A DNA stretch of 64,000 nucleotides from a virus (IMGVR_UViG_3300032073_000007:32001-96000); one strand, 5' to 3'. Shown: positions 19,330-43,312, counted from the first letter of the stretch. Program-made: numbers and translations. The notes: generated by a model from the sequence alone, not told the origin.

Positions 19330-20214
19330 TTATAATCTAGGGAAACGATAAGTGCATAATTCAAAGTCAATATATCCTACAGAGATGTTTTTATTCAGAT
19401 TCTCCCTAATTCTCTCTGAGACTATTTTAGACACAGAAACCTCTTGTATATGGGACTTTGTTGGATTTGATTGAGATGCTACCAAATTATCGTAACTATA
19501 AGGAAAATCTTTCAAAGAGAAAGAGAAACCATATGGGAAATCTTCATATGGAATATGCGTAATATCTCTTCTGACAGTATCTCTAAATAGAGAAAGAACA
19601 GAATCTAATGTGTAATTATCAAAAGATAACACCATTACTCGCATTCTTGTCCTAGTATCTTCCTCCCCTCCAAAAGAGAATTCAGTGTTATCTGAAGAGG
19701 CTACAGAAATAAAACAAGCAGGTAAGAAATATGTGGTTTCGTCATATTCTGCTGTTTTACCATATTGATACGGAAGCTCTGTAGCACTGTCTTTAAAATC
19801 TGAGTGAAGAATTATTTGGGCATCCGTATCATTTGTAATATAAGTATTAACTTCTTTTACAGTAGAATTTGCTGTCAGCGCCGTGCTTCCTATCTCAGCG
19901 CCAGATGCTTGAGGAAATATTAATCTTCCATTCTCATAATCTGTGAAAACACCTCCGTTCTTGTCGTAGTTGCCAGTAATAAAATCATTCCCTAAAAAGA
20001 ACCCAGAATTTGGGTTATCTACATTATACTCCCCGACTAAAGATCTATACTTTCCTTGAAAAGCGATATGAGTATCAGGAACATCTGAGAAAGATCCAGA
20101 AGTAAAAGCATTATCTAAGTTGATTTGATATGCTTTAGCAGAACTACCTAACAAGCGGTTCTCAAACCATAGGTAGAAACTTGACAAAACATTCTGATCA
20201 AACTGCGCCTTCAT
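19330..20214 (-). CDS. Putative tail terminator/completion protein
   Basis: Position between neck and tail tube genes; FSFGGEE ... GYIDFEL. Confidence 0.5.
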   Translation of the reverse strand: MKAQFDQNVLSSFYLWFENRLLGSSAKAYQINLDNAFTSGSFSDVPDTHIAFQGKYRSLVGEYNVDNPNSGFFLGNDFITGNYDKNGGVFTDYENGRLIFPQASGAEIGSTALTANSTVKEVNTYITNDTDAQIILHSDFKDSATELPYQYGKTAEYDETTYFLPACFISVASSDNTEFSFGGEEDTRTRMRVMVLSFDNYTLDSVLSLFRDTVRRDITHIPYEDFPYGFSFSLKDFPYSYDNLVASQSNPTKSHIQEVSVSKIVSERIRENLNKNISVGYIDFELCTYRFPRL

Positions 20215-20852
20215 TTATCTAATCTTAATAATTTCTGTTTAAAATCTTTTGTTAATTTACCAACATATGGCATTCTTTTAAAACTTACACCAGAAGACCT
20301 ATTTTTGGCTTGTATACCTGTTCCAGAAGTAGAACTATCAAACCCTGTAGAACTAAATAAATATTGTCCCAAGTTAGTCAATCCCCCCTCTTCTATACTT
20401 CTAGCCCAGCTTTTGCCAGCCATCCAAGGTATTGGAGTTAATCCATATATTTCTTCAATGCTTGGAATAAAGAAGGTGATTTGATATTTTCCTGAATTAT
20501 TTTTCCTTCTTACCTTAAATTTTATTTTTTCACTAAATATTTTAGATATAATCTGAGTTGGATTATCTCCTGAAGAAAAACCTATAAAGGAAAATAGGTT
20601 ACCGTATCCCCCTAAAGTTCCACTGGTGTTAGATGCTCTAGGCCCAGCGTCAAGCTCTATTGTTATTGGATGAGCTTCAAATTCCTTAATTAACTCAGAT
20701 TGTCTTTCTTGAATTTTGGGATCAATCAAGCCTCTGATGGCCATCGCCATGCTTTTATTATTAGGTGAATCTACCGTTAGCTCTCTAAGTAATTCTTTTG
20801 CGTTGACGGTTACTACTGGGGTAGAGACCGACATAAAATCTCTTCCAGCCAT
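20211..20852 (-). CDS. Putative neck protein
   Basis: Head-tail module position; GNLFSFIGF motif. Confidence 0.45.
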   Translation of the reverse strand: MAGRDFMSVSTPVVTVNAKELLRELTVDSPNNKSMAMAIRGLIDPKIQERQSELIKEFEAHPITIELDAGPRASNTSGTLGGYGNLFSFIGFSSGDNPTQIISKIFSEKIKFKVRRKNNSGKYQITFFIPSIEEIYGLTPIPWMAGKSWARSIEEGGLTNLGQYLFSSTGFDSSTSGTGIQAKNRSSGVSFKRMPYVGKLTKDFKQKLLRLDK

Positions 20853-21298
20853 TAGTTTTCACGTTTTAAAAATATTGAATAAAATTGAGTATCAAATGGG
20901 CCAATAACCTTTGCGTCTCCATCTACAACATATAGTTCATTATCAACCTCTATCTTTGAACAAATTTTAATTTTTTCATAAGCTGCTGCTTTTACTTTGA
21001 TTCTAATTTGTCCCTCAGATCCAACTAGATTCATTTGCCCATTACCATCAATGATATCTTCTTTTTGCTCGTTTTTATAATATACTCTAGCACTGTAAGT
21101 ATATCTTTCGAGAGTTTCTTCTGAAGATATTTTCGCTACATCTTTCCTCCTACCATATAGAGGATTATAATTTAATTCTACAGGAACACTTGAGACTTCT
21201 TTTACATAAACATGAATATCTCTAGCAAAAGTATCGTGAACGTCACTTAATGCTGAATTAATAGCTGTTTTTTCTGCGTCTGTAAGAAGTGAGGCCAT
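20852..21298 (-). CDS. Putative head-closure protein
   Basis: 148 aa, beta-rich, second gene of the connector module. Confidence 0.5.
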   Translation of the reverse strand: MASLLTDAEKTAINSALSDVHDTFARDIHVYVKEVSSVPVELNYNPLYGRRKDVAKISSEETLERYTYSARVYYKNEQKEDIIDGNGQMNLVGSEGQIRIKVKAAAYEKIKICSKIEVDNELYVVDGDAKVIGPFDTQFYSIFLKREN

Positions 21299-21302
21299 AG
21301 TG

Positions 21303-21791
21303 TCATGTTAATGTCCCAGATAGGGTGTAAGTGCCATCGGTTCCTGCGACTTGAATAGGTGAAGATTTTTGGTAATTGTATTGATATAAAAGATCATTTA
21401 ATCTTTCGCTCGTCTCAACAGACAAATCTCTATATGTTTTAGCAACAGAGTTTTTATTTTGTCTTTGTATAGTTGTATCACCCTCTTTTATAGTAACCCA
21501 ATCAACAGAATCAGAATAAGTAAATGATCTTAGAGATTCTCTAGCAGATTTTTGATAATACCAAAGTTCATAAAGAGTCCCAAAGATACTCTTCTCCACA
21601 TCTGCTAAACCTGTGCCATTCATTCTGATAGCACCAGTTGAGTTCACTTCGAACTCTTCATGGATGAGACCATTAAGCTCTCCAATGTTAGTTTCTAGCC
21701 ACCCAGAAACAAAACCAACATTATATGACCCTGTATCATTAGGGAAATCATATGTTACGATGTCAGTAGCTAAAACTCCAAGATCATTCAT
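21303..21791 (-). CDS. Putative head-tail adaptor
   Basis: 162 aa; WVTIKEGDTTI motif resembles adaptor proteins; follows the capsid genes. Confidence 0.5.
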   Translation of the reverse strand: MNDLGVLATDIVTYDFPNDTGSYNVGFVSGWLETNIGELNGLIHEEFEVNSTGAIRMNGTGLADVEKSIFGTLYELWYYQKSARESLRSFTYSDSVDWVTIKEGDTTIQRQNKNSVAKTYRDLSVETSERLNDLLYQYNYQKSSPIQVAGTDGTYTLSGTLT

Positions 21792-21794
21792 TAT

Positions 21795-22232
21795 TTAAAA
21801 GCCGTCCTTAAATAACCTTACAGTAGAATCATAGTCTGGGGAACTTGGATCTAAAATTGGTTTAGCAGAACCTTGAACAGTAACGTTATGTTTTTGCACA
21901 TAAAAATCAAACGACTTCATCAAAGACTTCCTAAGTAGATTCATATTCCTTTCTCTAGGAACCCCTACCCTAGCAGCTAAATCAGTTAATTCTGAAGCCG
22001 AGGATGCCTCTACGCGCTGTTTGAATATGTCTCGGTGCAAAGTTCCATATGGATTCATTTGAGGCATTCCTAGGAGTTCCTCAAGCTCTTTGACTTTTTC
22101 GATTTGCTCTTCTTTTTTACTTCGATCTTTGCCATCTGTTACATCGAATTCCTCCAAGTGTTTTTTCTCAATTCCTTTAGAAACTGGCATAGCCTCAAGA
22201 CTCTTGTTTTTAGCACTCTTCTTTTTACTCAT
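21795..22232 (-). CDS. Hypothetical protein
   Basis: 145-aa ORF within the operon. Confidence 0.6.
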   Translation of the reverse strand: MSKKKSAKNKSLEAMPVSKGIEKKHLEEFDVTDGKDRSKKEEQIEKVKELEELLGMPQMNPYGTLHRDIFKQRVEASSASELTDLAARVGVPRERNMNLLRKSLMKSFDFYVQKHNVTVQGSAKPILDPSSPDYDSTVRLFKDGF

Positions 22233-22266
22233 AATATATAATACCTAAATTTTGATATAAATCAAT

Positions 22267-22301
22267 AAAAAAGAGCCGCCCCTTTCGAGGCGACTCTCTT
22301 T
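22267..22301 (-). terminator. Terminator after the major capsid gene
   Basis: AAAAAAGAGCCGCC...GGCGACTCTCTTT hairpin. Confidence 0.65.
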
Positions 22302-22320
22302 ATAAGTGTTATGGTCTTGC

Positions 22321-23460
22321 TTATACGCAAAGTCCGATAAGAGCAGTATTGTCGATGCAAATACGACCCTCTTCAACTTTACCGTAGTAACCAATCTTGT
22401 TCTGACGAACAGAGAACTGGTCATCAACAAGAACTTGAAGCTCAGATGGAGATCCTTCACCAACAACAACAGGGCGAATAAGGGAATCCTTACTCCTGTC
22501 GATACCGATAACAATCTCGTCATCACCTGTTACCCAAGTTCCAGAACCACCACCACCGATAACAGTAGCACCTTCAGATGCAACGATAGCACCAAAGAGC
22601 TTGTTAAACAGTTGGCCGTTACCCATCTGGTTGATTTCCATGATGTTAATACCATAGAAGGAAGGAAGACCAGCAGCGCTGTAAAGCTCTTGACGAAGGG
22701 CTTCTGGAGCCATTTGTCCGTCAGCGGGAGTTCCACCAACAGGAGCAGCAGCAGTGCTTACAGGGTTGTAAGCCATTGCGCGGAGTTCCTCAACCATTTC
22801 TGGAGAAACCAGAAGGTCGGTGATACCAGACTTAACGCCACCAACAGGAGTTCCTCCACTGAAGGAACTGTTGATACGCTTACTCTTGGTGATCAAGTTA
22901 TTGAAGTCAGCAAGAACAAAACGATCTGCTGCTGCGGAACCAATGATGCTTCCACCAGCGGAACCACTTGTTCCAGTAGCTTTAACCAGAGCGGTTGCAA
23001 GCACGTTGAAAGCAGTTTTCGTTTGTTTCATTAAAACTTCTTGAGCCATCCGAGTGAAGGTCTTGCTAACAACATCAAGACGCGCCTTACGGACATACTT
23101 GCGATCAAATGCAAGCGCACTGTCCAAGGTGTAAGTCGAGAACTTGAGTTCGTTGTGAGCAGGGAATACCTGACTATAAGGAAGGCCACCAGCGACCTGT
23201 TGAGAATACACCTCGATGTAATCCTCACCAGTGATATCGTGGAAAAGGTCTAAGGGCAAAGAAGGATTGTCATCTTCTCCATAGGAAAGGCTGGTATACA
23301 GATTTCCAATGGTAGGAGCGTTATTAATAACTTCCGAAACGACTGGTCCAAGCAAGTCTGCGACTGCTGCCTGTGCCTCATAAGCCTCTTCACGATTATT
23401 AGATCCCATTGCTCGGATAAGAGCTAACTGATCTTCAGTTCTTTTAATTGTGATTTTCAT
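22321..23460 (-). CDS. Major capsid protein
   Basis: 379 aa; follows portal, protease and decoration genes; elevated GC; followed by a terminator. Confidence 0.75.
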   Translation of the reverse strand: MKITIKRTEDQLALIRAMGSNNREEAYEAQAAVADLLGPVVSEVINNAPTIGNLYTSLSYGEDDNPSLPLDLFHDITGEDYIEVYSQQVAGGLPYSQVFPAHNELKFSTYTLDSALAFDRKYVRKARLDVVSKTFTRMAQEVLMKQTKTAFNVLATALVKATGTSGSAGGSIIGSAAADRFVLADFNNLITKSKRINSSFSGGTPVGGVKSGITDLLVSPEMVEELRAMAYNPVSTAAAPVGGTPADGQMAPEALRQELYSAAGLPSFYGINIMEINQMGNGQLFNKLFGAIVASEGATVIGGGGSGTWVTGDDEIVIGIDRSKDSLIRPVVVGEGSPSELQVLVDDQFSVRQNKIGYYGKVEEGRICIDNTALIGLCV

Positions 23461-33249: not shown

Positions 33250-33424
33250 GAATAACTGAATGGTTGGTTACTTGTTTATAGAATTCACCACCCCCCCGCG
33301 CTGTGAGCGTCAAGTCATTTCTCAAAAATTCTCAAAAAACCCACCCCTACCTACCCGCCAAAAAAAAGAAAATAAAAGCATCTTTTCTCTTGCTTTCTAT
33401 CTGGATCTGTGCTATACTATGCCC

Positions 33425-33622
33425 ATGAAAGAAATTAAAACTTCCTTAGTCTCCGATCTTACATTCATTGAAATTGCTGATACTCTTCGGCCTGACCAAT
33501 GGGCTGATTGGTATGTAGAGTTTTCTTACAAGGGCAAAGACTACGAAGGGTCTTTACAGGCTGGAGTTCACAACGCAGAAGATTTTCATCACGATCTAAT
33601 CGAATACGTCGAAGAAAAATAA
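33425..33622 (+). CDS. Small early hypothetical protein
   Basis: ATG 6 nt after TTGCTT-17-TATACT; the provided ORF start at 33260 is probably too far upstream. Confidence 0.65.
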   Translation: MKEIKTSLVSDLTFIEIADTLRPDQWADWYVEFSYKGKDYEGSLQAGVHNAEDFHHDLIEYVEEK

Positions 33623-34939: not shown

Positions 34940-34955
34940 CCTGCCACTGTCATGG

Positions 34956-34990
34956 AGCCTCGTCACCCCAACGGGTGGCGAGGTTTTTTC
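34956..34990 (+). terminator. Rho-independent terminator
   Basis: AGCCTCGTCACCC-CAAC-GGGTGGCGAGGTT followed by a T tract. Confidence 0.8.
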
Positions 34991-35020
34991 TTGTAAAAAA
35001 ACAAATAAAAAGCTTGACAG

Positions 35021-35099
35021 CGTAACTCACTGATACTCAACGAGTTACGCGCGGCGGCCCGCCCCCGCCCCGTAACTCCTTGATAACCAACGACTTACG
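35021..35099. repeat. 79-bp double-palindrome element, copy 1 (orientation A)
   Basis: 29-bp palindrome + 21-bp GC-rich spacer + 29-bp palindrome. Confidence 0.95.
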
Positions 35100-35247
35100 A
35101 AGATTCCTCATGTATCATACTTTCAGATCAACGCAAGCATTTAAATGAAAAAAATTAACCTGTCTGACAACTTAAAAAAAAATCATTTTAAAGGTAAAAA
35201 AAGCTTTTAATTCATACGGATCTGTGCTATACTTCTCCCAGCAAGAA

Positions 35248-35361
35248 AGCTCTATAGTTTAAAAAGTAAAACATTCTCCGCGACCGCTTCAACAATAAGT
35301 CACCGCAACCCCAATGGTTCGGGCGAGAAAGATAAAGGTGCAAGTCCTTTTAGAGCGACCA
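35248..35361 (+). ncRNA. tRNA-like RNA with a 39-nt insert in the anticodon arm (possibly Pro-CGG derived)
   Basis: GCTCTA/TAGAGC acceptor stem + ACCA; D stem GTTT/AAAC; TTCTC/GAGAA anticodon stem; T arm AAAGG-TGCAAGT-CCTTT; TATACT at 35228. Confidence 0.7.
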
Positions 35362-35423
35362 ATTTCCCTAAAAAAACAAAATAAAAGTTTGCACTATCTC
35401 AAAAACTAAAGTAGATTCTACTC

Positions 35424-35612
35424 ATGACAGAAAAAGAACAAATCGAACACCTCAAAGATCAAATCTTCAAACTTCAAATGGTAATGAAGGGAGTTTCAGG
35501 CATCGCAGCAGCAAGGTCTTCATTCAAAGAGACTTCTGCCTTTAACAAGGAGACCTTCAAAAGAATCGAGAGCCAACTTGATGAAGCAGTCAAGGAAGTT
35601 CAGTTAGGGTAG
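35424..35612 (+). CDS. Small coiled-coil early protein; last codon and stop overlap the mini-tmRNA
   Basis: TTGCAC-17-TAGATT-6-ATG. Confidence 0.7.
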   Translation: MTEKEQIEHLKDQIFKLQMVMKGVSGIAAARSSFKETSAFNKETFKRIESQLDEAVKEVQLG

Positions 35613-35671
35613 CAAGGGTTTCGACGGGACGCAAGTCGCGGATGGGGGTTCGACTCCCCCGCTATCCACCA
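35607..35671 (+). ncRNA. Minimal tmRNA-like RNA (tRNA-like domain only, no tag ORF)
   Basis: Acceptor GGGTAGC/GCTATCC with G3.U70 and ACCA; GGTTTCGAC D-loop without a D stem; short P2 capped by GCAA; T arm GGGGG-TTCGACT-CCCCC. Confidence 0.8.
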
Positions 35672-35739
35672 AAAAAAAATCAAAATAAATACAAAAAAAG
35701 CTTTTTACTCACTCAAATCTCTGTTATAATTCTCTCGTT

Positions 35740-36075
35740 ATGAAAAACACCACTACCACTACCACCACCCGCTTCGATCACTCTCTCTATGGACTCAGTG
35801 ATCAAGACCTCAAGAAAAAGCTCACCAATCGCGTTGTTATCTACTGGAACAGCGAAGAATCCTCCGTCAAGAATGATGGTGTCCGTCAGTTCGTGGTCAA
35901 GTCAATCGACTACACTGGTCACGCCAAGGGTTCGGGTCGCCGTTACATCCAAGGGGAGTTCCAAGACCTCGACGATGGAGGCAAGACCAAGTTCCGCACT
36001 CTCCACGTTGCGGGAATCGAAAAGGTGAAGGGTCGCGTGGCGACCGCTTACAAGCTAGCCAAATCAGTTTTTTAA
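35740..36075 (+). CDS. Stand-alone WYL/SH3-like domain protein (paralogue of 37202-37480)
   Basis: LT..V.Y...SSV..D..R.F.V.S ... G..Y ... DGGK.K.R.L.V..I pattern shared with the paralogue. Confidence 0.55.
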   Translation: MKNTTTTTTTRFDHSLYGLSDQDLKKKLTNRVVIYWNSEESSVKNDGVRQFVVKSIDYTGHAKGSGRRYIQGEFQDLDDGGKTKFRTLHVAGIEKVKGRVATAYKLAKSVF

Positions 36076-36089
36076 GTGCATAGCGTGTT

Positions 36090-36126
36090 GCCCGTCAGTC
36101 TCTTCGGAGGCTGGCGGGTTTTTTTT
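36090..36126 (+). terminator. Rho-independent terminator
   Basis: GCCCGTCAGTCTC-TTCG-GAGGCTGGCGGGT followed by a T tract. Confidence 0.85.
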
Positions 36127-36155
36127 GCATTAAATTGTTTTTTGGCCTTGACAGC

Positions 36156-36234
36156 CGTAACTCCTTCATACTCAGTGAGTTACGCGCTGCGGCCAGCCCG
36201 CCCTGCGTAACTCCTTGATACTCAACGAGTTACG
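36156..36234. repeat. 79-bp double-palindrome element, copy 2 (orientation A)
   Basis: Same 29+21+29 architecture. Confidence 0.95.
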
Positions 36235-36375
36235 TCACCTTACAAAATATGCAGTGTGATGCCCTGTCAAGTAAATATTTAGCTATTTGTTATTTGTTGT
36301 TCTAACCTGTAACCTAAGACAAAAAAAAGATAAAAAAACATTTGCACTCCTGCGATCTTCTGGTAGGTTACTCGC

Positions 36376-36612
36376 ATGACAGTTCAAAACCCTATTGGCC
36401 AACTCGCCCCGATGACAGAATCTGACCTGCGCGATATGCTCAGTGATGGGCCTCGCTGCGGGAACTGGAACCCTACGCCCGATGAGGTGCAGGAGGTTCT
36501 CGCTGAGATCCACTCTGATCTCGGTGATCGCGATCCTCAGTGGTCTACTGATCAGGACGGATTGGACCCCTCAGACGCTCAAGCCCTCCAGTCTTACCTC
36601 GACGCTGAATAA
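36376..36612 (+). CDS. Small acidic early protein
   Basis: TTGCAC...TGGTAGGTT-6-ATG; 78 aa, Asp/Glu-rich. Confidence 0.7.
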   Translation: MTVQNPIGQLAPMTESDLRDMLSDGPRCGNWNPTPDEVQEVLAEIHSDLGDRDPQWSTDQDGLDPSDAQALQSYLDAE

Positions 36613-36638
36613 TCAAAAGAGACAAGACTCTCTTCAAG

Positions 36639-36664
36639 GCTCCCGAAAGGGAGCTTTTTTTTTG
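36639..36664 (+). terminator. Rho-independent terminator
   Basis: GCTCCC-GAAA-GGGAGC followed by a T tract. Confidence 0.8.
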
Positions 36665-36719
36665 TGCTTTTATGTAAAAAAAAGATTGCCAAAAGCAAAT
36701 TATCTGTTACACTACTCTC

Positions 36720-36938
36720 ATGTATACGTTCAGCTACTACATCGTCGCCAGCACAGGAGTTTACACAGGAGTCGCGATGTCGCGTTCTCCCAAGAAGGCT
36801 TCTGAAGAAGCCTCGCGGATCGCTTGGGAAAATCTCTACGAGGGGGATGCCAAAGCTGAATACTGTTCGGGCATCTCCGTGGAGGGGTGGACAGCGTGGC
36901 GAGGTCATAAAAAAATCGCGGAATACATGGACATCTAA
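36720..36938 (+). CDS. Small early hypothetical protein
   Basis: TTGCCA-16-TACACT-6-ATG; stop codon lies inside repeat copy 3. Confidence 0.65.
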   Translation: MYTFSYYIVASTGVYTGVAMSRSPKKASEEASRIAWENLYEGDAKAEYCSGISVEGWTAWRGHKKIAEYMDI

Positions 36939-37012
36939 CTCCTTGATAATCAGGGAGTTACGGGGCGGGGGTAGGCCGCAGCGCGTAACTCATTGATATA
37001 CAACGAGTTACG
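36934..37012. repeat. 79-bp double-palindrome element, copy 3 (spacer inverted, orientation B)
   Basis: Spacer GGGCGGGGGTAGGCCGCAGCG resembles the reverse complement of the A-type spacers. Confidence 0.95.
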
Positions 37013-37201
37013 ACTGAAAAAAAATGAATTTAAATGCAGAAATCGCTTGCATATCTGGTGATATTTGGTAAACTATTTGCATCGAAGCTATTTAACCTAT
37101 GCTTCTCTAACCTACAACAAAAACAGACCATGCTCAGAAAAAAATTAAAATTCAGCAAAAAACCTCTTGCACTCACTCAAAATCCTGTTATACTTATCCC
37201 A

Positions 37202-37480
37202 ATGCAAACAAACACCATTACTGCCAACCTCACCCTTCCTACTAACCCTGTGCAACTTGCTTCTGCTCTTACTGGCAAGACAGTTCACTATACAACTAAA
37301 AAAGATTCTTCTGTTACCTTCGACAGAGAAAGGGTCTTCAAGGTTGAATCCGTAGAGGACGTTTCAATCTCTCAATCAACGGGAGATCAATATGTAAATG
37401 TCAAGATCATTGACCCTCAAGATGGTGGTAAGGAGAAATACAGAAACCTCATTGTAGATAGAATTTCGACTGTTGTGTAG
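37202..37480 (+). CDS. Stand-alone WYL/SH3-like domain protein
   Basis: TTGCAC-16-TATACT-7-ATG; C-terminal KYRNLIVDRISTV resembles the WYL R.F..DRI motif. Confidence 0.55.
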   Translation: MQTNTITANLTLPTNPVQLASALTGKTVHYTTKKDSSVTFDRERVFKVESVEDVSISQSTGDQYVNVKIIDPQDGGKEKYRNLIVDRISTVV

Positions 37481-37494
37481 GTGTGTAAACGCAT

Positions 37495-37540
37495 AAGGGG
37501 TGGTAGGTGTGTGTGTGTCTTAAGTCCTGCCACCCCTTTC
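37495..37540 (+). terminator. Hairpin, probable terminator
   Basis: AAGGGGTGGTAGG ... CCTGCCACCCCTT. Confidence 0.5.
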
Positions 37541-37588
37541 TACAACAAAAAATTTGACAAACAACAAACAATAGAATAAATTAGCATC

Positions 37589-37810
37589 ATGCCTAAATCA
37601 TCAGAAACACTTCGTATCGAAGTCAAAACACAGGAACAAGCCGCCATTCTTAACTATGCTCTTGGCTTGGTTCATCAGCACCTCGCAAGTCGTCTTGAGG
37701 AGGTAGAAGATAATAAACTTGATACCTTCTTAGATAATGTTAAGTGGACTCGCAAACACGCAAAGTCTCTTAATGACAAGTTTTCTCTTAGTGAGTTACA
37801 GAATTCCTAG
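37589..37810 (+). CDS. Small early hypothetical protein
   Basis: TTGACA-17-TAAATT-6-ATG. Confidence 0.7.
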   Translation: MPKSSETLRIEVKTQEQAAILNYALGLVHQHLASRLEEVEDNKLDTFLDNVKWTRKHAKSLNDKFSLSELQNS

Positions 37811-37970
37811 GAGTTGAATTGGACCACAGAGAAATCATGGTTCATCTAGAAACTCCGAAGAACAGGTGGTAACAGTGACCAACTCTTAATTGACTGGCAC
37901 TCGTCAACAAGCCGACCCTCTCTCACTCTTCTAGACAGTGAGGGAGGGAACCACTTTCTTGCTAGATGGG
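37810..37970 (+). ncRNA. Candidate structured non-coding RNA
   Basis: Nested complementary segments in an ORF-free gap, followed by a terminator. Confidence 0.4.
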
Positions 37971-37973
37971 GTA

Positions 37974-38015
37974 AGTCCCGTCCTCCTTCGTCACTGGGGG
38001 GCGGGGCTTTTCTTT
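37974..38015 (+). terminator. Rho-independent terminator
   Basis: AGTCCCGTCCTCC...GGGGGGCGGGGCT followed by TTTCTTT. Confidence 0.65.
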
Positions 38016-38088
<73 letters not shown>

Positions 38089-38167
38089 CCTAACTCCTTA
38101 ATACTCAGGGACTTACGCGCTGCGGGCGGCCCCCGCCCCGTAAGTCGTTGATACTCAACGACTTACG
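38089..38167. repeat. 79-bp double-palindrome element, copy 4 (orientation A)
   Basis: Begins immediately after the tRNA discriminator base. Confidence 0.95.
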
Positions 38168-38270
38168 CAGGAAAAAGAAACACATGTTTTTAAGTCTGTC
38201 AAGCAGAAAAAAATAAAAGAAAAAGCTAAAAAAGGGTTGCATCAAATCAATTATGTGGTAAACTTCTTGC

Positions 38271-39029
38271 ATGTTGATACTAGCTAAAAACAAAGTCGAT
38301 TCCGAGCAACTTGCAGAAGTCATCACTCCTGCCGCTACGGATACCCACACTCCAATCGGTCACGCACTCCTTGCGGAGCGCACTCGCAATGTCATCGCGA
38401 AGGCTGGTCTTGAGATCACTCAAGAAGAACACGCCATCGCGCGTGGCGGTCTCCGCTACTTCGGCGGCTTCGCCCTCAAGGGCGAGGCAATCGACGGGGA
38501 TGATCGCAAGCTTGTGCTTGGTCTCCGCAACGCGCACGACAAGTCCTTTGCGGCTTCCGTGTGCATCGGCAACCAGATGATGGTCTGCGAAAATCTTTGC
38601 TTCTCTTCTGATGTGAAGCTCGCTCGCCGTCACACCGTCAACATCCTTCGGGATCTGAACACGGTCCTTTCGTCTGCCGTCAGTCGCGTTACCTCGCACT
38701 GGGCTGACATGGGCAATCGGATTGCCTCCTACAAGGAGAGTGAAATCTCTAAGGAGGCGGCTTCCGACTTGGTTGTCGATCTTGCCGAGATGGGTGCGTT
38801 TCCTGCGCGTTCCGTCTACAAGGCGATTCAGGAGTTCCGCAACCCTCGCCATGAGGAGTTCAAAGGTGGGACGCTCTGGACGCTCTACAACGGCGTGACT
38901 GAGCATCTCAAGGGTGGCGACCTTACCAAGTTGCCACAGCGCACGATGACCACGCAGTCTGTCTTTGACAGGCTCGCGGGCCACAAGCCCAAGATCGTCG
39001 AGGCCGAAGAGATTGCCTTGCCCGCATAG
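38271..39029 (+). CDS. DUF932-family protein
   Basis: LGLRNAHDKS...MVCENLCF...GTLWTLYNGVTE motifs; leaderless promoter TTGCAT-16-TAAACT. Confidence 0.75.
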   Translation: MLILAKNKVDSEQLAEVITPAATDTHTPIGHALLAERTRNVIAKAGLEITQEEHAIARGGLRYFGGFALKGEAIDGDDRKLVLGLRNAHDKSFAASVCIGNQMMVCENLCFSSDVKLARRHTVNILRDLNTVLSSAVSRVTSHWADMGNRIASYKESEISKEAASDLVVDLAEMGAFPARSVYKAIQEFRNPRHEEFKGGTLWTLYNGVTEHLKGGDLTKLPQRTMTTQSVFDRLAGHKPKIVEAEEIALPA

Positions 39030-39048
39030 CCCTGCCGCTACCATCACA

Positions 39049-39080
39049 GGCCCGCATTCCGAAAGGGGTGCGGGCTTTTG
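39049..39080 (+). terminator. Rho-independent terminator
   Basis: GGCCCGCATTCC-GAAA-GGGGTGCGGGCT-TTT. Confidence 0.8.
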
Positions 39081-39126
39081 CTTGCAAAAATAAAATGTTT
39101 TTTTAGTTGACACGGTATTCAAGCCT

Positions 39127-39205
39127 CATAACTCGTTGAATATCAACGAGTTACGGGGCGGGGGCCGCCCGCGCAGCGTAACTGCTTGATACTCAAGGAC
39201 TTACG
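39127..39205. repeat. 79-bp double-palindrome element, copy 5 (orientation B)
   Basis: Same architecture with an inverted spacer. Confidence 0.95.
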
Positions 39206-39264
39206 ACTGAATTTTAATTCTTTTTTAATTTGACAGTTTTTTTTCTTTGGGGTATATTTTTGCC

Positions 39265-39471
39265 ATGACTAAGACATATAATATTTCTCGACGAGGATCG
39301 CGCACAAACCCACATGACCTACCTTTTGATTTTGTATTTGAGTGGTTTAATGGGACAGAAGAAATAGGTATTTTCTGCTCATTACACGCAGCGATCACGC
39401 TTGCAGAAGAATTTGAAAAGTTCGGTTATAAAGAGTTGGAGGGCAGCATTCAATTTACCTCTGCAATTTAA
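39265..39471 (+). CDS. Small early hypothetical protein
   Basis: TTGACA-17-TATATT-6-ATG. Confidence 0.65.
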   Translation: MTKTYNISRRGSRTNPHDLPFDFVFEWFNGTEEIGIFCSLHAAITLAEEFEKFGYKELEGSIQFTSAI

Positions 39472-39516
39472 ATTAATTTTAATTGACAAACTAGAAAACT
39501 CTGTTACATTACCCAC

Positions 39517-40203
39517 ATGGCAAAACTACTTAACGATGGAAATTCCAAAACAAGCAAGGGAGAAAAGTATGGTTGGAAAACCTATGGAATACACCTTGCC
39601 CCATATAACCTATCAGGAAAAAATGTTTGTGCTTCTGCTTCTGCTGGTTGCGCTGCTGCTTGTCTCAATACTGCTGGTCGTGGATCAATGAATTCAGTTC
39701 AAAATGCCCGAGTTAAAAAAACACAGAGGTTTCATGAGGATCGGGATGGATTCCTATCGCAGTTATTCAAAGAAATTAAAAGCTCGATTAAAAGCGCTAC
39801 GAGAAAAGAACTAAAGAGTTGCTTCCGTTTAAATCTTACAAGTGACATCCTTTGGGAGCGATTTGTTGTTGGACATTTTCCAGATACTCAATTTTACGAC
39901 TATACTAAACACCTAAATAGATTCGTTCGTTTCTTGGAGGGCAAACTACCAAGCAATTATCATCTCACTTTTTCAAGGAAAGAGAATACTCCTGACACTT
40001 TGGTAAAGAGCTTGTGTGCAAGTGGTGGCAATGTTTCAGTTGTGTTTAGGAAAAAGTTACCTAAAACGTGGCTTGGAATAGAAGTAATTGATGGCGACGA
40101 TTCCGATCTGCGTTTTGAAGATGGCAATGGCAAGATTGTCGGTCTAGTAGCAAAAGGCAAAGGAAAGAAAGACGAAACAGGTTTTGTTGTGGAGCCAGAA
40201 TAA
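39517..40203 (+). CDS. GP88-family phage protein
   Basis: CASASAGCAAACLNTAGRG, FRLNLTSD, FYDYTK, NYHLTFS, DGDDSDLRF, IVGLVAKG. Confidence 0.75.
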   Translation: MAKLLNDGNSKTSKGEKYGWKTYGIHLAPYNLSGKNVCASASAGCAAACLNTAGRGSMNSVQNARVKKTQRFHEDRDGFLSQLFKEIKSSIKSATRKELKSCFRLNLTSDILWERFVVGHFPDTQFYDYTKHLNRFVRFLEGKLPSNYHLTFSRKENTPDTLVKSLCASGGNVSVVFRKKLPKTWLGIEVIDGDDSDLRFEDGNGKIVGLVAKGKGKKDETGFVVEPE

Positions 40204-40283
40204 AGATCCCCTGCAAAAAAAATGCAGGAAAATCAAATAATTTTTATAGTAATAGTAACAGCAATAATAACAATATACTTTTC

Positions 40284-40466
40284 ATGACAATAGAAGTAAC
40301 ACAAAAGGAAGTTTATGGAAACACCCTAACCTATGTGGCAGATGAATCTGTCAGGAATTCCATAAAGAAACTAACGGGAAGAAAAACTTTGACCGACTAC
40401 GACATTGAAGCTCTCAAGGAACTGGGCTTCGTCTTAGTCCTCAAGCAAATGACCGTCAACATCTAG
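40284..40466 (+). CDS. Small conserved-type phage protein
   Basis: KEVYGN...LTGRKTLT..DI.ALKELGF pattern. Confidence 0.7.
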   Translation: MTIEVTQKEVYGNTLTYVADESVRNSIKKLTGRKTLTDYDIEALKELGFVLVLKQMTVNI

Positions 40467-40474
40467 CCCATCTC

Positions 40475-40553
40475 CGTAACTCCTTCATAATGAGGGAGTT
40501 ACGCGCGGCGGCCCGCCCGCTCGGCGTAACTCGTTGATAATCAGTGACTTACG
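40475..40553. repeat. 79-bp double-palindrome element, copy 6 (orientation A)
   Basis: Same architecture; lies where plus- and minus-strand early genes converge. Confidence 0.95.
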
Positions 40554-40567
40554 ACAGATCAATGTAT

Positions 40568-40594
40568 AAAAAAAACCGCACAAACGTGCGGTTC
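40568..40594 (-). terminator. Terminator for the minus-strand genes
   Basis: A tract + AACCGCAC-AAAC-GTGCGGTT. Confidence 0.65.
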
Positions 40595-40635
40595 TGTGGT
40601 ATGCTTATTTGCTTATTAAGGCTTTAACCTATAAC

Positions 40636-41160
40636 CTAAGACTGAATTTTATATGGACTGCTATCAGAATTATTAAGTTCATTTGCTACAACCTGAAGCT
40701 TGCCATATGTTTCTTGCTTTCTGCCTCTCATCCACATACAATCCCAACGCTGTCTTCGAGGTTTGCGGTGGTAGTATCGGTATATTTCTCCTGTGTCTTT
40801 ATTAATCAGTTTCCATTTACCTTTAATGGTTTTTACTGTGCCTCCTTTCTCTTCAGGGGTATAGCATCTCTCAGGTCGTGCGCCCACCTTGATACACATC
40901 CGCTTCCACTCAGCGTCGTGACCATGCCCGCTGCCCGCAAGAGCGTGGGCAATCTCATGGAGAACAACGTCTTTAGATTCTTCTATTGTATTAATCAGAA
41001 CCAGCTTCTTTGTAATACCAATTTCTTTTTTGTAGTATCTGCATTGCCCGTATCTGCTGGTGGCCTTATTGTCCCAGACCATTTTCCAGCCTATTCCTGC
41101 TAAACACCATTCTTCAAGCTTCTCTTGCGCGAACTTCTGTATTTCTATTAGCTTGTTCAT
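40636..41160 (-). CDS. SprT-like zinc metalloprotease
   Basis: RYGQC...VLHEIAHAL..GHGHDAEWK; start uncertain (41160 or 41211). Confidence 0.85.
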   Translation of the reverse strand: MNKLIEIQKFAQEKLEEWCLAGIGWKMVWDNKATSRYGQCRYYKKEIGITKKLVLINTIEESKDVVLHEIAHALAGSGHGHDAEWKRMCIKVGARPERCYTPEEKGGTVKTIKGKWKLINKDTGEIYRYYHRKPRRQRWDCMWMRGRKQETYGKLQVVANELNNSDSSPYKIQS

Positions 41161-41224
41161 TGATTTAAAGTAACTATTATTGTTATTATTACTAGGAATA
41201 TAATCCACCACTGATATAGTGTCA

Positions 41225-42098: not shown

Positions 42099-42719
42099 TT
42101 ATAATAACTGAACCCTTTCAAACTGCTTTTCTTCTACTATTCCCAGCTTATCTTTTATTAGCTTAATTAGTATTGATATGGGTCTGCCTCCTGTCTTCTC
42201 TTCTTCATATAGCCATATGTTATTTGCACAGGTTCTACGGTTTGGATTCTCTGGAGTAGGGCAAAGGTCATTAGGTTTAAGCACTCTTGTTTTAAGCTTA
42301 TCAAAATCATGTATATCATTCCACCCAAGAAGTTTTGCTGTAGCTGTTTTTATATTGCCCCGATATAAAACATCATACCACACAACAACAGCATTGTTTC
42401 TTTTGTATTTCTCCTTATGGGATGGTGCTAGAGAATGCCAAGCATTTGCTTTTATCTCAAATATCTGATCTTCTATCTGTATATCACTCCCCTTATTGGT
42501 AAAGTGCCTTGCCTCAAATTTAATTTTATCCTCTGGTATACCTTCTTTAATCAAAAGATTATAAAAACTATATTCCGCAATAGCTCCTCTAATAGCAGAA
42601 GATTGATTGTTGTGTTTATAGGCGTTTCTACCAGTCTGCTGTCGTTTTTTATTTAATTCAACAGCTTTTTTAGCTCCTATTTGTATTTCTTCGGTTTGTT
42701 TATCTGTAAGGGTGTTCAT
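42099..42719 (-). CDS. Putative PD-(D/E)XK nuclease
   Basis: GAIAE ... GSDIQIEDQIFEIKA. Confidence 0.55.
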   Translation of the reverse strand: MNTLTDKQTEEIQIGAKKAVELNKKRQQTGRNAYKHNNQSSAIRGAIAEYSFYNLLIKEGIPEDKIKFEARHFTNKGSDIQIEDQIFEIKANAWHSLAPSHKEKYKRNNAVVVWYDVLYRGNIKTATAKLLGWNDIHDFDKLKTRVLKPNDLCPTPENPNRRTCANNIWLYEEEKTGGRPISILIKLIKDKLGIVEEKQFERVQLL

Positions 42720-43312
42720 AAAAATGATTTCTTTCTCTTTCTTTTAAGCTTTTCTAAAACACGACGAAAAAGGAAGGCTCTAGTAGAGTAGTTGGGACCA
42801 GATTGTCCCCAATGAACGCTTGATTCTTCTAAATTTTTCTTATATTCATCTTCAAAAACCAATTTAAAAGATTGTATTTGGCCATAAGAGAACCCTCCAA
42901 GTTTTTTTACGCAAGCTTTTATTAAATCTTCGTGAAAGCAAGACCCAAAAATTTCTTTATAATCTCTATTAGTCCTAATTTCAAGCCAAGTATTATAATA
43001 AGGAACGCTTGTTTTTTTTATCCAAAGCCACATAGCGTCTTTACAATTTATGTTGGGAGCTTCTTTATGGCAGTGTTTGCATAATAAAACAAGATTACAC
43101 GGTTTGTCTGAGCCTTTTAATGAATGGGGTATGATATGACATCTTTCGATCCTGTTTGTGGTTTTTGACTCGCATAAGTCGGCGCATCTCCAGCATCTAC
43201 GTTCTGGCGAATCTGCCCAATCTATCCCCATATCGCCTTCATAAACTCTCGATTGCCAATAATCTACAATTTCTGAATGAGAAGGTAATCGTCTTTTTGT
43301 TTCCTTTTTCAT
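42716..43312 (-). CDS. HNH endonuclease
   Basis: CWRC...ERCHIIPHSLKGSDKPCNLVLLCKHCH. Confidence 0.85.
   Translation of the reverse strand: MKKETKRRLPSHSEIVDYWQSRVYEGDMGIDWADSPERRCWRCADLCESKTTNRIERCHIIPHSLKGSDKPCNLVLLCKHCHKEAPNINCKDAMWLWIKKTSVPYYNTWLEIRTNRDYKEIFGSCFHEDLIKACVKKLGGFSYGQIQSFKLVFEDEYKKNLEESSVHWGQSGPNYSTRAFLFRRVLEKLKRKRKKSFL

Follow-up and report, generated by a model that had tools for sequence, protein, structure and literature searches.

In Escherichia coli, the composite repeat known as BIME-1, RIP or RIB consists of two repetitive extragenic palindromic (REP) sequences around a site for the integration host factor IHF; the biology of REP sequences and of bacterial interspersed mosaic elements (BIMEs) has been reviewed (PMC3333891, PMC2817692). 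BIMEs bind a host DNA-bending protein and have been proposed to structure the DNA and to manage supercoiling. Here we describe six elements of comparable build in the early region of IMGVR_UViG_3300032073_000007:32001-96000, a stretch of 64,000 nucleotides of viral DNA referred to throughout as the window. Each element is 79 bp long and is made up of a 29-bp imperfect palindrome, a spacer of exactly 21 bp, and a second 29-bp palindrome. We tentatively take the elements for protein-binding sites on duplex DNA which mark the boundaries between early transcription units, with a host bender of the IHF/HU type as the best candidate for the binder; this account may well be right, albeit with somewhat less than an even chance. 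The identity of the binder, the bending of the DNA and an insulating role are what we infer from the sequence.

Like BIMEs, the phage elements are composite and intergenic, combine two palindromic units with a short linker, lie at the 3' ends of transcription units, and also occur in clusters of more than two units (up to seven, in locus L030). The layout, however, is reversed, with the IHF-like consensus residing in the palindromes and the linker being GC-rich. Whereas BIMEs are dispersed in hundreds over the chromosome, the phage elements are confined to one island; moreover, they lack an associated Y1 transposase in three near-complete relatives, and their stems are not kept paired. The foot of the phage palindrome, CGTAA(C/G), differs from the REP tags GTAG and CGTC named in the title of PMC3733652.

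The promoter early stem-loop (PeSL) cassettes of T4-type phages, described in connection with modular shuffling, combine a strong early promoter with a stem-loop terminator (PMC2839356, PMC4122927). The elements resemble PeSLs in being repeated, conserved non-coding motifs of a hyperplastic early region, composed of small genes with strong sigma-70 promoters of their own, and in that mosaic boundaries between relatives fall at the motifs. Unlike PeSLs, they contain neither a usable −10 box nor a U-run, a −35 box abuts only three of the six, their consensus is common to cellular genomes, and neither minicircles nor rearrangement joints were seen in metagenome contigs. Blocks of the type inverted repeat–spacer–inverted repeat with paired host DnaA boxes are found in the first-step-transfer region of T5-like phages, where their function is itself only proposed (bioRxiv 10.1101/866236). 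The present elements share with these blocks the conserved repeat–spacer–repeat build, the location in the earliest-expressed region, the consensus sites for a host protein, and a conservation exceeding that of the neighbouring genes. However, the large siphovirus T5 carries two such blocks, of 131 bp each, along with a long non-coding region, whereas here an element is placed between transcription units, and both the protein and the sequence are different ones.

The stoperators of mycobacteriophage Cluster A and the 17-bp palindromes of Cluster O are single sites of 13–17 bp which occur genome-wide and are bound by a phage repressor. They correspond to the present elements as many copies of a protein-site motif in intergenic gaps, conserved across a phage group; in contrast, our palindromes measure 29 bp, are paired around a GC spacer, occur in the early island only and are also cellular. 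In attP and cosB of phage lambda, IHF bends the DNA beside phage-specific sites, each a single locus with a known enzyme (integrase and terminase, respectively). A conserved site for a host bender next to sequence that differs between related phages is common to both cases, but here six or more loci are involved, and the partner protein is only postulated.

The six elements and the early island

An earlier note on this DNA had described six double-palindrome elements of invariant geometry, with no further copies in the window. Direct reading of the sequence and a pattern search bear this out, the elements being located as follows (P1 and P2, first and second palindrome; A and B, spacer orientation):

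35021–35099, element 1: P1 35021–35049, spacer 35050–35070 (A), P2 35071–35099
36156–36234, element 2: P1 36156–36184, spacer 36185–36205 (A), P2 36206–36234
36934–37012, element 3: P1 36934–36962, spacer 36963–36983 (B, inverted), P2 36984–37012
38089–38167, element 4: P1 38089–38117, spacer 38118–38138 (A), P2 38139–38167
39127–39205, element 5: P1 39127–39155, spacer 39156–39176 (B, inverted), P2 39177–39205
40475–40553, element 6: P1 40475–40503 (with a TCA/TGA double change), spacer 40504–40524 (A), P2 40525–40553

Successive elements start 1135, 778, 1155, 1038 and 1348 bp apart, and P2 starts 50 bp after P1 in every one of them. With up to three mismatches allowed, the palindrome pattern gave 19 strand-hits in the 64-kb window, all within the twelve palindromes, ten of which were matched at this stringency (P2 of element 2 without any mismatch); there was no match elsewhere in the 64 kb, and none is expected (100 shuffles). 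The GC content of the window spacers is 86–100%, as compared to 38% for the whole window. The spacers of copies 1, 2, 4 and 6 are alike in direct orientation (14–18 of 21 positions), while that of copy 3 best matches the others as its reverse complement (14–18 of 21, with 18 reached against copies 1 and 4), and that of copy 5 matches copies 1 and 4 in the same manner (16–18 of 21, with 18 against copy 4). Since copies 3 and 5 match best as reverse complements, the order A,A,B,A,B,A given in the earlier note is real.

The elements lie in a plus-strand island of small genes (about 33.3–40.6 kb) flanked by minus-strand structural and replication modules. As had been noted before, the elements enclose plus-strand genes only, one to three per interval, each behind a promoter of its own; the promoters are sigma-70-like and the starts mostly leaderless. 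Between 33260 and 40470, nearly every early gene starts 4–9 nt (mostly 6) past its −10 box, and the mRNAs would therefore be leaderless; the −35 boxes in this section are preceded by A-rich upstream tracts. Terminators ahead of elements and two identifiable genes are:

34954–34987, plus strand: intrinsic terminator ahead of element 1
36090–36119: intrinsic terminator ahead of element 2
38271–39029, plus strand: DUF932 gene (Pfam PF06067, E 6.6e-10), between elements 4 and 5
about 39049–39079: hairpin with T-run ahead of element 5, read by eye from the sequence
39517–40203, plus strand: GP88-family gene (Pfam PF17338, E 3.6e-47), between elements 5 and 6

The terminators precede elements 1, 2 and 5 by 30–45 bp (34 bp in the case of element 1), and the next promoter follows 24–107 bp downstream of every element except the last. 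With terminators ahead of them, the elements thus occupy the gap from the end of a transcription unit to the promoter that follows. Elements 3, 4 and 6 come right after a gene or tRNA without an intervening terminator: P1 of element 3 contains the stop codon of the open reading frame (ORF) 36720–36938, and element 4 adjoins the 3' end of tRNA-Met (38016–38090). Element 4 also forms the upstream flank of the DUF932 gene, the downstream flank of which is element 5. Element 6, the last of the series, closes the plus-strand island and is followed by a terminator (40572–40595) for the converging minus-strand genes.

A promoter inside the element was considered and rejected, as the plus-strand GATACT/GATAAT boxes and the abutting TTGACA either result in spacers of 12–15 bp or lack a −10 box altogether; only in the lineage of the window does the palindrome centre show a plus-strand bias. 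An interpretation as intrinsic terminators was likewise discarded, the window palindromes having no following U-run, and a search of Rfam gave no match to the elements. TTGACA boxes without a usable −10 precede elements 1, 2 and 5 at distances of 1, 2 and 14 nt (35014–35019, 36148–36153 and 39107–39112, respectively), all three with A-rich upstream tracts. Mirrored TGTCAAG boxes occur about 30 nt past elements 2 and 4; next to the palindrome cluster of L030, both boxes directly face each other (CTTGAC-N5-7-GTCAAG). Another repeat, TAACCT-N-TAACCTAAGAC preceded by a T-rich lead, is located after elements 2 and 6 (36284–36320 and 40606–40642), and a weaker copy of it past element 3 (about 37092–37119).

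Half-sites, consensus and cellular copies of the palindrome

Covariation was analysed in a set of 222 unique palindromes at 13 pairs of mirrored positions, which were found to vary independently. Over all 13 pairs, the Watson-Crick total was 2310, as compared to 2288 expected; pair 6-24 (C/G) was Watson-Crick in 128 palindromes (128.5 expected), and pair 10-20 in 146 (152.6 expected). In a typical palindrome about 2.6 of the 13 pairs are not Watson-Crick, as independent half-sites predict, and G-T and A-C mismatches are equally frequent. The sole excess concerns the C12-G18 double change, which was seen seven times against about one expected and includes copy 6; hairpin-templated correction can give rise to such changes, and several of them share descent. 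The compensatory TCA/TGA change reported in the earlier note is thus present in copy 6, but there is no general compensation across the set. The independence of mirrored positions indicates that no hairpin or cruciform is under selection and is the pattern of half-sites for a dimeric protein; a selected RNA hairpin or DNA cruciform was ruled out on these grounds and because G-T is not favoured over A-C. With the orientation set by the DUF932 gene, the central triplet and the spacer occur in both orientations relative to the genes across lineages. Palindrome identity is 0.79 within genomes versus 0.77 between genomes. The data argue for reading the elements as two half-sites on duplex DNA, and not as an RNA element, a cruciform or an attC-like fold. 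The earlier suggestion of a periodic scaffold, either protein-binding or cruciform, therefore survives in its first part, which fits the independent half-sites, the shared consensus and the cellular sites, but not in its second.

The IHF consensus has been quoted as WATCAR-N4-TTR (PMC10380432). Made symmetric about W, this consensus becomes YAA-N4-TTGAT-W-ATCAA-N4-TTR, which is the palindrome of the elements. The exact, unsymmetrised consensus is present in nine of the twelve palindromes of the window, with at least one per element: in both palindromes of elements 1 (minus strand), 3 and 5, and in P2 of elements 2, 4 and 6, in the last case on both strands. Among phage palindromes in general, 133 of 205 contain it. 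In the structure of IHF on the H' site, with the consensus starting at the dyad and kinks 9 bp apart inside ATCAA, the arrangement is such that, by analogy, one IHF dimer could occupy the symmetric palindrome.

Cellular genomes were scanned at one genome per species (185,579 species), with the three central bases of the palindrome left free. The scan yielded 56 loci, namely about a dozen phage-like arrays binned into metagenome-assembled genomes (MAGs) and approximately 40 single chromosomal palindromes, with the cellular copies mostly in Fibrobacter, Verrucomicrobia and Bacteroidota. All but one of the 37 distinct single cellular sites have the IHF consensus, as compared to 22% by chance (p = 5e-23). 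In Fibrobacter, the palindrome is found at two orthologous intergenic loci in about 25 species and is conserved while the flanks diverge. These loci (L035, L062 and about 23 others) are divergent-promoter regions, one of them having the gene of a giant protein (1800–2350 aa) on one side and, on the other, a small ORF with an M23 peptidase gene, the second region adjoining the gene of a 1302-aa protein. An Akkermansia MAG (G005, loci L090–L098) contains nine copies, located 23 or 31–32 nt upstream of a TAnnnT box; several precede polysaccharide pyruvyl-transferase or glycosyl-transferase (GT2) genes, dynamin-like genes also being found downstream, and the set looks like a small regulon. Each of these copies is followed by a GCATT-N-AATGC motif, and three are situated near contig ends. 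Inspection by eye for sigma-54 promoters next to the Akkermansia and Fibrobacter sites gave no consistent picture.

The cellular palindromes have no common neighbouring gene that could name the binder, and the genes flanking them have no homologue among the phage early genes. Judged from these conserved sites, it is very probably a cellular protein that reads the palindrome. Abundant dispersed copies were not found in any genome of the 185,579 species, the largest chromosomal family being the nine copies in Akkermansia. The REP-like host repeat, which the earlier note had named as an alternative, accordingly fails as far as this collection reaches, from which the host of the phage may be absent. 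As text in the literature, the motif was found in unrelated primers only.

Spacers, relatives and gene turnover

Spacer identity is 0.71 within a genome versus 0.53, which is near background, between genomes. The orthologous spacers of the window and of L028 are 33–57% identical, compared with 78–88% for the surrounding DNA. About 30% of the similar within-genome spacer pairs are inverted. Near-identical spacers occur without near-identical flanking palindromes (0.84 vs 0.78), which speaks for selection on a genome-specific spacer sequence or for conversion tracts of very short length. The mean folding energy of spacers is −7.9 kcal/mol versus −6.6 kcal/mol for shuffles (p = 4e-6), many of them having no hairpin at all, and GC-richness is their sole universal property. 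We propose that the GC spacer may constitute a second, lineage-specific module.

Among 50,697 cultured-phage records there was no match to the 79-mer or the island, and no close relative of the window. The window is almost completely present (89–99% of sampled words) in 15 seawater or viral metagenome runs; 16 runs hold at least half of it, and the 20 metagenome runs holding the window stem from 17 studies. An exact-pattern scan of IMG/VR yielded 115 elements of the same architecture in 33 loci, with palindromes 48–51 bp apart and spacers that are always GC-rich; such elements thus populate the early islands of many uncultured phages. In the three near-complete relatives the palindromes are restricted to one region, and in complete relatives the elements keep to a single early island, adjoined by the conserved module that also flanks the island of the window. 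The presence of two clusters in a relative of 147.7 kb (G001, IMGVR_UViG_3300042549_009011) proved to be an artefact: the contig end (144371–147652) repeats the section 20,000–23,282 at 99.4% identity, leaving one island of about 11 kb and implying a unit genome of about 124 kb, not 147.7 kb. The palindromes of L030 abut directly. Other lineages have 13-nt spacers, or spacers which are true terminator hairpins with a T-run, as observed in L046 (a 139-kb contig binned as Saccharibacteria), where the palindromes are 57–58 bp apart; terminators of relatives adjoin the element or fall inside it. The nearest cultured homologues of the GP88 protein belong to phages of Pelagibacter and other Alphaproteobacteria, which is a weak hint at the host, whereas the cellular copies of the palindrome come mostly from other groups.

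In gene maps of 43 loci, the arrangement element–DUF932–element was seen in about 20. In nearly all relatives, the GP88 interval comes next after the DUF932 interval; L027 has the two in swapped order, and the contents of the intervals vary between close relatives. Single promoter-gene units are also gained at places without an element, one example being family F9, found downstream of GP88 in L008 (95% identity to the window). Of 1345 ends of homology blocks, 75 (about 6%) are located at outer element edges, as compared to about 17 expected; since the elements are conserved everywhere, this enrichment is partly forced. Some mosaicism is thus seen at element edges, and one lineage has a cassette swap, but turnover is also found elsewhere. 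A secondary role of the elements in homologous exchange is possible.

Genes for serine recombinases (PF00239), tyrosine recombinases (PF00589) and Y1/HUH transposases (PF01797) were absent from the three near-complete relatives, while the control genomes were positive (for PF00589, all of them). The scanned ORFs of the window contained no tyrosine recombinase either, so that the absence of a recombinase from the window, as stated in the earlier note, holds for the ORFs scanned and extends to these relatives. Contigs from independent samples, all runs consisting of contigs, span every element without difference, and no rearrangement at the elements was found among them. In the reported "joints", each side spans about 29 nt and the spacer is a foreign one; they represent elements of related phages, not rearrangements. 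As to the features of attC-type systems, i.e., an IntI gene, sites conserved in their fold, promoterless cassettes and gene flux only at the sites, none was found. The integron-like cassette system that had been suggested is not supported in view of the lack of covariation, the promoters owned by the genes, the missing recombinase, the element-free gene gains and the unchanged contigs.

Possible role and rival explanations

A host bender of the IHF/HU type is the best candidate for the binder in view of the palindrome being a symmetrised form of the IHF consensus. No HU/IHF gene was found in the three near-complete relatives (control genomes positive), and a binder of this type would therefore have to be the host's. 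Each 29-bp palindrome would bind one dimer, with a specificity common to many phages and cellular genomes, and the paired sites, at a fixed distance of 50 bp here and 48–51 bp in relatives, would flank about 21 bp of lineage-specific GC-rich DNA, serving as a second recognition module or as a stiff, non-melting connector. The complex would occupy the poorly transcribed gap from terminator to next promoter. A pair of sharp bends at each element, recurring about once per kilobase, could partition the early DNA and thereby insulate strong neighbouring promoters from read-through and supercoiling, or stop silencing proteins from spreading; such a boundary or insulator role is suggested by the analogy to bacterial BIMEs. 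As a side effect, the elements probably act as homology patches for segment exchange between related phages, since they are the only long conserved non-coding sequence.

A number of observations weigh against this account. The distance from element to promoter varies from 24 to 107 bp, which is not the fixed geometry of an activator, and the distance between the palindromes differs by up to 3 bp among lineages, changing the relative phase of the bends. A host bender alone does not account for a GC-rich, lineage-specific spacer. Positions G22, A23, C28 and G29 are conserved though not specified by E. coli IHF, and in some lineages the first palindromes have a GCG centre and no ATCAA core; the binder may thus be another dimeric factor with a site resembling that of IHF. 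No sequence-specific IHF is known from Fibrobacter or Akkermansia. In a variant to which we assign a low probability, the sites would be of a "two-key" type, the host bender on the palindromes presenting the spacer to a putative phage factor that marks the phage's own early DNA. Such a factor might switch the early DNA off, shield it from silencing or nucleases, or nick it; sister-copy repair would then make the spacers uniform and promote the exchange of early genes between co-infecting relatives.

Among the alternatives to boundary sites for a host bender, operators for a phage-encoded regulator are unlikely, although they would explain several properties of the spacer. The regulator would recognise a composite of palindromes and spacer and shut off or block early transcription in the manner of stoperators; consistently, the spacers are uniform within a genome and divergent between orthologues, as if co-evolving with a genome-encoded protein, the elements are found in the early island alone, and spacers that are identical between non-identical palindromes point to spacer selection over simple gene conversion. 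However, the palindrome also occupies conserved bacterial chromosomal sites without phage context or common neighbour gene, no Pfam DNA-binding domain was detected among the early proteins scanned, and the elements do not overlap promoters and are mostly situated behind terminators, where there would be hardly any transcription for a roadblock to stop. A function in RNA, with three consecutive hairpins at early transcript ends signalling processing, stabilisation or termination, comparable to REP or T7 RNase III sites, is improbable. A 13-bp stem can be folded from each palindrome, the spacers fold slightly better than shuffles, elements 3, 4 and 6 are directly behind a gene or tRNA without a terminator, and in some relatives the spacer is a terminator hairpin with T-run or a T-run follows the second palindrome. 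Against this stand the lack of covariation, with G-U not preferred to A-C, the flipping of spacer and centre relative to the genes, the many spacers without a hairpin, and the strong terminators which already precede elements 1, 2 and 5; little or no RNA-contig cover was found over most element bins, which, the cover being thin, is weak evidence.

The excess of block ends at outer element edges, the swap of the DUF932 and GP88 intervals in L027, the differing contents of intervals in close relatives, the retention of the element-flanked DUF932 unit as a block, and the concerted, often inverted evolution of spacers are what would be expected if the elements were portable homology for early-gene shuffling between co-infecting phages, in the manner of PeSLs, with protein binding being secondary. 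We nevertheless hold this to be improbable as their main purpose, since about 94% of block ends lie elsewhere, promoter-gene units such as F9 in L008 are inserted at element-free junctions, the edge enrichment is in part a consequence of universal element conservation, and the elements, unlike PeSLs, contain no working promoter or terminator; furthermore, selection for evolvability alone cannot keep a 25-bp consensus unchanged from phages to cellular genomes. Least probable is a dedicated site-specific recombination or transposition system (attC-like, res-like or REP/RAYT-like) that excises, inverts or captures intervals. Two dimer sites and a spacer are comparable in size to the res sites used by the Sin and beta resolvases, both spacer orientations occur, and cassette order is swapped once. 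Yet the three enzyme families searched for are missing from the near-complete relatives, the genes keep one orientation despite inverted spacers, folding is not selected, and a 3-bp palindrome centre would be odd for staggered cleavage by known recombinases. In addition, contigs from independent samples have the same arrangement, the apparent joints represent matches of 29-nt palindromes to those of relatives, and no host-like genome with abundant dispersed copies was found.

Should the elements indeed be boundary sites bound by a cellular protein, the palindromic mosaic elements of bacteria would for the first time have a counterpart in a phage, in inverse layout, and, in view of the seawater metagenomes from many studies that contain the window phage, an organiser of first-expressed DNA would be acting at large scale. 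In several phyla, a conserved cellular protein seemingly recognises the 29-bp symmetric site. If this binder is of the IHF type, the site would provide a handle on sequence-specific DNA bending outside the Proteobacteria, and would show a virulent phage using host architectural proteins to partition its early genes; the uniformity of spacers within genomes points to a second, phage-specific layer.

Some further features of the island and its surroundings were recorded. The DUF932 sequence gave no match in the PDB. A 65-nt tmRNA-like domain at 35607–35671 (RF00023, 43.9 bits versus a gathering score of 47) comprises the tRNA-like part without the message part and overlaps the stop codon of ORF 35424–35612; in two metatranscriptome runs, the depth of RNA contigs is highest in its bin (69.8 and 14.2). 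At 35248–35358, the Rfam tRNA model matches a tRNA-like gene that includes a long insert (41.6 bits over 111 nt, without an ARAGORN call). ORF 33260–33622 has a weak, sub-threshold match to the Lsr2 dimerisation domain. Just beyond the island, the minus strand codes for an HNH endonuclease (42716–43312) and a SprT-like metalloprotease (40636–41211).

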